From positions 1 through 24,779 of the forward strand of contig JAJOKY010000023.1 of assembly GCA_021129615.1 (NCBI GenBank): a stretch of 24,779 nucleotides of DNA, written 5' to 3'. Position 1 is the first letter of the stretch, and the number at the start of each line of letters is the position of its first letter. Shown one piece after another: positions 15,647-16,758 of the stretch. Source of the DNA: Minisyncoccota bacterium (GTDB lineage: Bacteria; Patescibacteriota; Minisyncoccia; Minisyncoccales; CSSED10-335). A program made the position numbers and the translations under genes. The notes below the pieces were generated by a model. The model did no database searches. It saw nothing but the letters and a program-made list of their open reading frames with translations, and was not told where the DNA came from.

Positions 15647-15697
15647 ATAGCTCTTGATTTTACCCCTGAAATATCGGGGGTAAAGATGAGGAGCTAT
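15647..15697 (+). repeat. Inter-cassette hairpin H1
   Basis: ATAGCTC-TTGA-TTTTACCCC-TGAAATATCG-GGGGTAAAG-ATGAG-GAGCTAT. Confidence 0.85.
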
Positions 15698-15703
15698 AAA
15701 TTA

Positions 15704-15711
15704 AAAGGTCG
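15704..15711 (+). promoter_or_regulatory. AAAGGTCG motif
   Basis: 35 nt upstream of ATG 15747. Confidence 0.6.
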
Positions 15712-15746
15712 GGCTTCTTAATAAAAATTAAATAATAAACAATAAA

Positions 15747-16022
15747 ATGAAAAAAGGAATAATTAAAATAATCAAGCTTGGTTATTATCACCCCTCAAAT
15801 GCTAACTGGAATTACGGCATTCATTTAATAATTGATAAGACAGGAGCGAGGGCTTACAAGGAAACATTCGGAGGAGACAGCAGAATGATTGAAAAACTAA
15901 AAGGAAAAGGTATTGAGGTTGAAAGAATAACTGGAAATATCCCCTATGCTTGCTATAAGTGGCAGGATGTAAAAGATTTGCTTGATATTGAAAAATACGA
16001 AGGCAAAAATTGGGTTAGATAG
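15747..16022 (+). CDS. Early hypothetical protein (91 aa)
   Basis: Clean ORF with A-rich leader; its stop TAG lies inside hairpin H2. Confidence 0.8.
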   Translation: MKKGIIKIIKLGYYHPSNANWNYGIHLIIDKTGARAYKETFGGDSRMIEKLKGKGIEVERITGNIPYACYKWQDVKDLLDIEKYEGKNWVR

Positions 16023-16069
16023 CTTTTGACATAGTCCCTGAAACATCGGGGATTATGACGAGAAGCTAT
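16019..16069 (+). repeat. Inter-cassette hairpin H2
   Basis: ATAGCTT-TTGA-CATAGTCCC-TGAAACATCG-GGGATTATG-ACGAG-AAGCTAT. Confidence 0.85.
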
Positions 16070-16074
16070 AAAAT

Positions 16075-16082
16075 AAAGGTCG
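16075..16082 (+). promoter_or_regulatory. AAAGGTCG motif
   Basis: 38 nt upstream of ATG 16121. Confidence 0.6.
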
Positions 16083-16120
16083 GGGTTTCTCAATAAATAA
16101 TTAAAAGATAATAAAAAACT

Positions 16121-16696
16121 ATGAGCTATGAAATTGTTAAAGCTGTTAAAATAGAAAATGACAGAGTGATGATAAAGGGAGCGAGTAACAATGTATATCC
16201 TAAAAATTACGAATATTGGGAGTGTCATCCGCTAACAAAAACATTGCGAGAAAAAGGAAAAGAGCAAGCTGAAATTGATATTTTAAAAGCGTATGAAGAG
16301 GGCAATTTTCAAGCAGGGACAGAAAATAAATATACCAGAGCATTAAAGATTCTACGATATTTGTCAGAATATGAAAGGTTTGATTGGAGGAATAAATACA
16401 AAGGAGATGAAGACAATGACAAGATAATAGAGCAAAGGCGGGAAAGCAAGGAATTTGATGAGTTGTTGCTGAAGGTATTGAATACAAAACTACCAAAGCA
16501 AAAATTTGTCATCACAAAGAAAGTAGGAAATGATGAAGAAAAACAAGTTATCTATATGAAATATAGGAAAAATGCTGGTTATTGTAAATGGTATACTGAT
16601 ATAAAAAAGGCAAAAAAGTTTGATTTTTTAGAGGAAGCAGAGAGCATAAAAAAATACTTTACGAATAGCGAAAACTGGGAAATTATTAGAGTATAG
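16121..16696 (+). CDS. Early hypothetical protein (191 aa)
   Basis: Clean ORF; its stop TAG lies inside hairpin H3. Confidence 0.8.
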   Translation: MSYEIVKAVKIENDRVMIKGASNNVYPKNYEYWECHPLTKTLREKGKEQAEIDILKAYEEGNFQAGTENKYTRALKILRYLSEYERFDWRNKYKGDEDNDKIIEQRRESKEFDELLLKVLNTKLPKQKFVITKKVGNDEEKQVIYMKYRKNAGYCKWYTDIKKAKKFDFLEEAESIKKYFTNSENWEIIRV

Positions 16697-16758
16697 CTTT
16701 TGATGCTATGCTTTAATAGCCGCAAGAGCACTATTAGAGCATAGCAATGAGAAGCTAT
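16693..16758 (+). repeat. Inter-cassette hairpin H3
   Basis: ATAGCTT-TTGA-TGCTATGCT-TTAATAG-loop-CTATTAG-AGCATAGCA-ATGAG-AAGCTAT. Confidence 0.85.

Follow-up and report, generated by a model that had tools for sequence, protein, structure and literature searches.

A covarying family of RNA hairpins between early phage genes and its possible role in processing the early message

Three consecutive small genes on a contig assigned to a Minisyncoccota bacterium (assembly GCA_021129615.1, contig JAJOKY010000023.1) are each followed by a hairpin, here called H1, H2 and H3, in which a conserved outer stem encloses an inner stem of quite different sequence in each copy. The question raised by this locus is what such an element does between genes that are otherwise unrelated. 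The window, meaning the whole stretch of 24,779 nucleotides (nt) that was analysed, is the entire contig C1 of a 307-kb, 43-contig bin (G000) from a sample labelled hydrothermal vent metagenome. An earlier note on this DNA had described an array of early genes separated by covarying hairpins and had offered three explanations, namely (a) RNA processing or stabilising sites, (b) protein-binding RNA elements with some resemblance to lambda boxB, and (c) single-stranded DNA recombination sites like the attC sites of integrons. The analysis supports this interpretation in part: the covarying RNA family and the two RNA explanations in their general form have gained ground, while the attC idea has lost it. 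Most likely the hairpins mark where a long early message is cut or re-structured, and the narrower proposal that H1 to H3 are processing or stability sites of an early polycistronic mRNA, of the kind that RNase III recognizes in phages T7 and SP82, appears plausible though short of probable.

All three hairpins were found again at the positions first reported for them:

15647 to 15697, plus strand: hairpin H1, 51 nt, of the plain class that lacks the apical motif described below; predicted fold −29.4 kcal/mol (z −7.4), covariance model score 67.7 bits.
16019 to 16069, plus strand: hairpin H2, 51 nt, plain class, with ACG replacing AUG in the core; predicted fold −25.9 kcal/mol (z −7.9), 64.9 bits.
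16693 to 16758, plus strand: hairpin H3, 66 nt, of the apical-motif class (CCGCAAGAGC), with no leader box after it; predicted fold −34.1 kcal/mol (z −7.9), 70.3 bits.

When the plus strand was folded as RNA, none of 200 shuffled sequences folded as well as H1 to H3, and the minus-strand folds are 5–9 kcal/mol worse (−20.7, −16.8 and −29.0 kcal/mol for H1, H2 and H3). The box pattern TAGCT-N30-60-AGCTA occurs four times in the window against 0.77 expected, three of the four being these hairpins. The initial description is borne out for the outer stem, for the internal loop with GA opposite AYG, and for the inner stems, which are unrelated in sequence yet fully paired. It also holds for the TAG stop codons of the genes at 15747–16022 and 16121–16696, which lie within ATAGCT, for the box AAAGGTCGG after H1 (15704–15712) and H2 (16075–16083), and for the unrelatedness of the genes, since blastp at 1e-4 detects no similarity among the three genes upstream of the hairpins and the one downstream. 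H1 and H2 do have a length of 51 nt and a loop in common, and that apical loop is not conserved across the wider family. The asymmetric loop is seen as well, but 40 members resolve it into a G.G mismatch, an A-U pair and one bulged A.

These members belong to a widespread family that now numbers 45 distinct hairpins in about 25 phage contigs, collected with a covariance model founded on H1 to H3. The seed was widened with a pattern joining both conserved boxes to the AAAGGTCG box, which yielded copies in the viral contig L056 and in the terminase relative L118, and a model (R1) was built from six copies. R1 gave 35 matches at E up to 0.1, spread over 15 metagenome contigs, a single contig having as many as four or five; many of the hairpin-bearing contigs come from 0.1-micron groundwater fractions. 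Among the pattern matches in metagenomes, 14 of 29 were false, having no model match, as were both of those in species-representative genomes, and a looser box pattern was useless in viral contigs, where it returned more than 100 chance matches. Phage records reached through homology of the sliding clamp also carry hairpins, with three copies in G029 (99% complete), three in G030 (93% complete; one of them found with filters off) and others in G024, G026 and G028. Every one of the 45 members is intergenic and oriented with the genes. The covariance model and the search of related genomes for which the earlier note had called have produced both further members and covariation. A scan of the 42 other contigs of the bin, which are host sequence, found no hairpin, and the element is a phage-specific addition. 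No Rfam 15 family, self-cleaving ribozymes included, matches the hairpins at E up to 1 for the window or up to 0.1 for five related loci, and R1 reaches no E value below 0.07 in the early region of phage SPO1, T7 itself not having been searched. From the 0.4–1.0 Mb genomes of its relatives and the filter fractions of the related contigs we infer that the host is a bacterium with a very small genome.

The structure was counted over 40 distinct aligned rows; the alignment was fitted to the model and so leans towards the structure, which makes the controls with slid partners the decisive ones. Standard pairs fill 94.8% of the cells, compared with 72.8% in shuffles and 39–51% when the partners are slid, and changes on both sides are found in 17 of 20 pairs. 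The base of the stem is nearly invariant (GCUYUU / ARRAGC). The pairs adjacent to the core are constant to a similar degree, with G-C and C-G each present in 39 of 40 members and the U.G wobble and U-A in all 40, and G13, A100 and G102 are invariant or nearly so. Above the base come the G.G mismatch, the A14-U101 pair, which three members replace by G-C and H2 by A.C, and then the bulged A; the conserved ends read GCUYUUGA and AUGAGRRGC. The upper stem, of at least 10 base pairs, covaries freely. Members are predicted to form 17–31 pairs, typically 21–23, and G.U accounts for 100 of 746 predicted pairs (13%). That structure rather than sequence is selected in the inner stem, and that a covarying hairpin family punctuates the early genes, is strongly supported. 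A kink-turn was considered for the core and rejected, as its tandem G.A register breaks the covarying outer-stem C-G/U-A pair and A14-U101 covaries to G-C; loop E, hammerhead and small-peptide readings (the core contains AUG) do not fit in register, consensus or reading frame.

The sense fold is better than the antisense fold in 33 of 33 members, with means of −30.4 and −21.2 kcal/mol. A fold that is specific to the sense strand and uses G.U pairs points to a function in sense-strand RNA, or formally in single-stranded DNA of the top strand, and it excludes both a palindrome acting in duplex DNA and a site on the bottom strand.

Position is regular too. In 31 of 33 members the upstream stop codon lies 2–13 nt before the conserved GCU, which is 0–10 nt from the base of the stem, and in seven cases a TAG stop falls inside the stem, as it does in H2 and H3. 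Most hairpins are followed 5–19 nt downstream by AAAGGUCG, together with an A-rich leader of roughly 30 nt; GGTCG occurs no more than 30 nt after the hairpin in 27 of 35 members and precedes the next ATG by 17–42 nt, with a median near 31. The stretches from hairpin to ATG contain no −35/−10 promoter match, and the idea that the hairpins are promoters was rejected by the promoter scan. In the window they are set among the following features:

15361 to 15389, plus strand: sigma-70 early promoter of consensus form, TTGACA-17-TATAAT (12 of 12 positions matched in the promoter scan), which starts the hairpin-bearing operon.
15400 to 15408, plus strand: leader box AAAGGTCGG (“k”) without a hairpin, about 4 nt past the point where the transcript is predicted to start; the gene 1 ATG lies 37 nt downstream of the box.
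15446 to 15643, plus strand: early gene 1, 65 amino acids, no known family; its TAA stop ends 3 nt before H1.
15704 to 15719, plus strand: leader box AAAGGTCGG (15704–15712) followed by GCTTCTT, a perfect complement, G.U allowed, of the H1 outer 3′ strand GAGGAGC.
15747 to 16022, plus strand: early gene 2, 91 amino acids, with its TAG stop within the H2 outer stem.
16075 to 16091, plus strand: leader box AAAGGTCGG (16075–16083), then GTTTCTC (16085–16091), which complements the H2 outer 3′ strand GAGAAGC.
16121 to 16696, plus strand: early gene 3, 191 amino acids, with 57 uncharacterised metagenome homologues; its TAG stop is within the H3 outer stem.
16788 to 17324, plus strand: early gene 4, 178 amino acids from the ATG called in public assemblies; a GTG at 16767 is also open.
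17356 to 17428, plus strand: long hairpin ending in a U-run, a probable intrinsic terminator; predicted fold −31.2 kcal/mol (z −5.3); it closes the four-gene operon.

The scan found no strong plus-strand promoter between 15361 and the next one at 17820, and this, with the terminator-like hairpin at about 17400, places H1 to H3 inside one four-gene early operon. The probable terminator indicates that the host uses ordinary U-tract terminators. No U-tract follows the stems of H1 to H3, and because the end of the operon has one, the hairpins are not terminators.

The remainder of the window is that of a phage contig, with an SU10-type major capsid protein, an SPP1-type portal and a large terminase on the minus strand, and small early genes and replication genes (a clamp-like protein, an AAA+ ATPase and a RecE-like nuclease) on the plus strand. 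A nucleotide search (blastn) with positions 14800–18500 found no match among cultured phage genomes, and exact-protein look-up returned the same phage only. The homologues of gene 3 in other phages stand within tightly packed early operons, and two of the 57 are about 300 amino acids long and carry PF21781.

The box that follows the hairpins is of host origin. The exact 8-mer AAAGGTCG occurs 11 times in the phage contig, always oriented with a gene and upstream of its start codon, and the 9-mer form with up to one mismatch gives 12 matches; copies without a hairpin lie at 15400, 18317, 20122, 20457, 21135 and 23350 on the plus strand and at 8543, 566 and 122 on the minus strand. The host contigs hold 10 copies of the AAAGGTCG box (on C5, C7, C15, C16, C19, C36 and C37), all 10 at 25–36 nt before an ATG-initiated open frame of at least 45 amino acids, and seven of the downstream frames reach at least 60 amino acids, against 11.5% for control words of the same composition. 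One host copy (C7:2646) precedes groES-groEL and another (C37:1485) follows a tRNA by 11 nt. In related genomes the raw counts of AAAGGTCG are not above control, and only the position relative to the starts of open reading frames is non-random.

No Shine-Dalgarno (GGAG) enrichment is seen before open reading frames in the host bin, which contains no 16S gene. The 16S 3′ tails of three genomes of the same family (L167 G008:C9, L168 G007:C14 and L170 G006:C15) read GGAACAAUUAAUAU or similar, are A/U-rich and lack the CCUCC anti-Shine-Dalgarno; it seems that Shine-Dalgarno initiation has been abandoned altogether in this lineage. As the 16S of these relatives has no complement of AAAGGUCG, pairing of the box with rRNA is rejected, and the position of the box in host contigs, combined with the lack of Shine-Dalgarno use and of a 16S complement, identifies it as a host-type leader signal. 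It may act as a translation signal or as a 5′-end signal. Upstream of groES (G000:C7, about 2600–2700; L153) there is also a CIRCE-like half-palindrome, TTAGCACTC, 9 nt, GTTTGCCAA, whose 9-nt spacer is exactly the AAAGGTCGA box. One contig with a gene 3 homologue carries the leader box alone, with no hairpin.

Both strands of the conserved helix have second partners, the 5′ strand in the apex and the 3′ strand downstream. About 20 members, H3 among them, carry the apical motif YCGYAAGAGC, which can pair through its final six bases with the outer 5′ strand; where that strand is altered, as it is in only two members of this class, the motif shows the matching change, GCUAUU/AAUAGC and GCGCUU/AAGCGC. 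For the outer 3′ strand, a 5-mer situated 2–3 nt past the hairpin is complementary in 16 of 45 members (control 2.8%), and a changed strand, GAGUA, is again met by a matching UACUC. A perfect 7-mer complement directly after the leader box is present in 6 of 33 members, including H1 and H2 (shuffles 1%; leaders without a hairpin, 1 of 37).

A scheme for the action of the hairpins can be proposed from these features. Transcription from the promoter at 15361 would run through gene 1, H1, gene 2, H2, gene 3, H3 and gene 4 to the terminator near 17400. An endoribonuclease specific for both structure and sequence, for which host RNase III is the prime candidate, would recognize the conserved base and cut the early mRNA there. 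The upstream message would retain the hairpin as a protective guard at its 3′ end, and the downstream message would start at a defined host-type leader, near the leader box. In many members the freed 3′ strand could then refold with the complementary segment just downstream, providing a protective hairpin at the new 5′ end. Such cutting might in this way influence the stability or the translation of the individual messages.

The host bin encodes RNase III (PF14622, 143.5 bits, G000:C39:1121–1516), as do 20 of 21 related genomes, and no phage-encoded RNase III was found in the five hairpin-bearing phage records. The length of the helix, about 18–31 base pairs in total, fits the roughly two helical turns that an RNase III substrate needs. 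The k box is found near 5′ ends in three independent settings, about 4 nt past a promoter start (15400), 11 nt past a host tRNA and 5–19 nt past the hairpins, and these settings agree with the hairpins creating 5′ ends. Phage T7 has the early processing signals R0.3, R0.5, R1, R1.1 and R1.3, and Dunn and Studier in 1983 reportedly described cutting of its early mRNA at five intercistronic hairpins. Recent mapping has found marked sequence and structure preferences in bacterial RNase III (PMC6212723, PMC11780869), and the early mRNA of the Bacillus phage SP82 is a recognized target of Bs-RNase III (PMC4838370). Explanation (a) of the earlier note, RNA processing or stabilising, and in a general sense explanation (b) fit the sense-specific folding, the 13% of G.U pairs, the invariant U.G, the position of the stop codon and the host RNase III gene.

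Several observations weigh against processing by RNase III. About 12 nt are invariant across phages whose terminases are only 65–70% identical, which exceeds the known needs of RNase III and might indicate a different protein. In related host genomes the stems at which 16S rRNA is processed, a classic RNase III substrate, do not contain the motif of the hairpin base. Simple cleavage also does not account for the apical motif, which complements the outer 5′ strand and has two compensatory variants. Hairpins are also missing from the phage records G002 (complete, 40.8 kb, terminal repeats), G003, G025, G027, G031 and G033, and the complete G002, which packs its early genes tightly, shows that the element is dispensable for this type of phage. 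G002 (L157 and L158, 8000–14300) has the same core genes, and its early genes abut or overlap by 1–8 nt; such overlaps are an alternative solution, translational coupling, to the same problem.

The main rival to processing is a translation-coupled RNA switch that would work without obligatory cleavage, the expression of each gene depending on translation of the preceding one. Since the stop codon abuts the 5′ strand of the conserved helix, a terminating ribosome must melt that helix and let the 3′ strand re-pair downstream. The freed GAGGAGC would pair with UCCUC after the hairpin or with GCUCUUC after the k box, and presentation of the leader would change as a result. A host that does not use Shine-Dalgarno sequences, and whose relatives lack CCUCC in their 16S, may need a special entry device for internal cistrons. 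The closeness of the stop codon to the stem base (0–10 nt in 31 of 33 members) agrees with such a switch, as do the alternative partners of the outer 3′ strand, present with compensatory changes in about 25 of 45 members (GAGGAGC/GCUUCUU in H1 and GAGAAGC/GUUUCUC in H2), and the two compensatory variants by which the outer 5′ strand keeps its pairing with the apical motif. However, the full hairpin, at about −30 kcal/mol, is far more stable than the alternative helices (−5 to −8), about 20 members have no alternative partner, and the 7-mer complement after k is only weakly enriched relative to leaders without hairpins (6/33 versus 1/37). A pure switch also does not explain the invariant core with its G.G and bulged A, and we consider this account unlikely, if well worth keeping in view.

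A related and more speculative thought, to which we give a rather small chance, is that the hairpin acts jointly with its AAAGGUCG leader as a device for translation entry in hosts whose Shine-Dalgarno system has been lost. The helix might be opened either by the terminating ribosome or by a cut, its strands might re-pair with the apical AAGAGC and with the downstream UCCUC or GCUCUUC, and the leader box would then be presented in such a way that ribosomes treat every internal cistron as they would a fresh host mRNA. If true, such a device would represent a novel mode of coupling between the genes of an operon and offer a way into the question of how the ribosomes of ultra-small bacteria find start codons.

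Comparably improbable is that a dedicated RNA-binding protein, of phage or host, reads the core of U.G, G.G and bulged A, whether as a translational repressor or activator, as an antiterminator of the N/boxB or put type, or as a nuclease other than RNase III. A core that is almost invariant amid covarying surroundings is typical of protein operators, and L129 and L133, contigs that bear hairpins, encode a homologue of a basic early protein of 113 amino acids (17482–17823) that resembles helix-turn-helix proteins. No protein family, however, is common to the hairpin-bearing genomes and missing from the hairpin-less ones, the k-turn register is contradicted by the outer-stem C-G to U-A covariation, and the hairpins follow genes rather than promoters, unlike nut and put sites. 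Explanation (b) thus survives as a general protein-recognized RNA element and fails in its specific form: the resemblance of the apical loop of H1 and H2 to boxB is unsupported because the apical loops differ freely in length and sequence across the family. As for the 113-residue protein itself, it is very basic, its resolvase-type helix-turn-helix match is weak (PF13936/PF02796, below cut-off), its homologues occur only in L129 and L133, and it is a possible nucleic-acid-binding regulator.

There is a slight chance that the main evolutionary role of the element is played at the DNA level, as a patch of homology through which early genes are swapped by homologous recombination, in the manner of the PeSL elements of T4-type phages (PMC2839356, PMC4122927). 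Of 19 nucleotide matches between contigs, 10 are islands consisting only of the hairpin, with or without the leader, at 75–85% identity and between unrelated flanking genes, and such islands may serve as points of homologous exchange. The gene families beside the hairpins sit in differing neighbourhoods, and the four hairpin-flanked genes of the window have no homologues in the closest relatives. Exchange of this kind would explain how the element spreads, but not the strand-specific G.U pairs, the invariant wobble or the covariation, which need an RNA function. The module has neither a promoter nor a U-tract terminator, and the nearly identical contigs L128 and L134 differ by an indel that has no hairpin at its borders.

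A selfish palindrome resembling REP or MITE elements and spreading into intergenic gaps is very improbable: there are many intergenic copies, and the same hairpin variant can lie between unrelated genes, but the element was found neither in the 42 host contigs nor in the scanned species-representative genomes, it keeps a strict sense orientation and a fixed position relative to stop codon and leader, and copies in the same genome differ fully in the inner stem yet keep their pairing, which reflects selection rather than recent copying.

Scarcely credible, finally, is explanation (c), in which the hairpins are attC-like single-stranded DNA sites on which a tyrosine recombinase acts in a phage gene-cassette system. 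The architecture does resemble attC, in that the outer box is conserved, the central bases are unpaired and the terminal stem varies, and a small tyrosine recombinase is encoded just downstream of hairpins in G029, G028, L121 and L134:

L179:6970–7518 (G029), L200:4111–4695 (G028), L121:4174–4734, and L134: small tyrosine recombinase.

These proteins of 183–195 amino acids, the size of FimB/E, consist of the catalytic domain only, with R, K, HxxR, H and Y all present (PF00589, E about 1e-31 to 1e-36), and in that one subclade the order clamp, hairpin, small open reading frame, recombinase is conserved. The recombinase does not track the hairpins, however. The window has none, nor do G030 (93% complete, three hairpins), G024, G026 and G001; PF00589 is found in one of five hairpin-bearing phage records (G029 only), and where the gene is present it is co-directional with the hairpins and downstream of them rather than divergent with an attI. 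The strand preference is the wrong one: in 33 of 33 members it is the coding strand that gives the better fold, and what are G.U pairs there turn into A.C mismatches on the opposite strand. There is no GTTRRRY-type R′/R″ core, and the earlier statements that the attC core is not matched and that the window encodes no recombinase both stand. Homologues of gene 3 at 45–59% identity occur in six other contigs without a hairpin, which means that gene and hairpin do not travel as a unit, and hairpins flank a core gene, that of the sliding clamp, in L132, L134, L144, G029 and G030. In its site-specific form the attC idea failed each of the tests that could be applied and is not supported; what persists of the cassette picture is the occurrence of hairpin-plus-leader islands between unrelated genes.

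Processing of the early message remains the reading that we prefer. The hairpins add a covariation-supported RNA family to the small set of operon-punctuation signals known in phages, and the phages in question infect bacteria that have very small genomes and cannot grow alone. The near-invariant core is a sharply defined target in the search for the enzyme or protein that recognizes the hairpin, and the host leader box, along with the anti-Shine-Dalgarno lost by the relatives, makes start-codon selection in these bacteria testable. Integron-like and RNA readings can be told apart by the strand asymmetry of G.U pairs, by whether gene and hairpin travel together and by whether a recombinase tracks the hairpins.

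Among known systems, the attC sites of integrons are alike in having a conserved outer inverted repeat, unpaired central bases, a variable terminal stem and a place at the 3′ end of small genes, but the hairpins have the wrong strand preference and no attC core, are accompanied by no IntI or attI, and flank a core gene. The PeSLs of T4-type phages are likewise short conserved stem-loop modules between unrelated small early genes in variable regions (PMC2839356, PMC4122927). They combine a strong sigma-70 promoter with a working terminator, whereas the present hairpins have neither promoter nor U-tract and show covariation of the RNA type. The early signals of T7 and the sites of SP82 are also repeated irregular hairpins of about 50–60 nt between early genes that are transcribed by host RNA polymerase, and they too have a conserved lower part and a small non-Watson-Crick core, with RNase III supplied by the host. 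They show no sequence relationship to the hairpins of the window (SPO1 early region, Rfam). The present core of U.G, G.G and bulged A is far more invariant, its cleavage would be by analogy, the element is tied to a leader box of the non-Shine-Dalgarno type, and both strands of its base have alternative partners. The exact family is new and absent from Rfam, while the kind of element to which it belongs, the punctuation of operons in phages, is already known.

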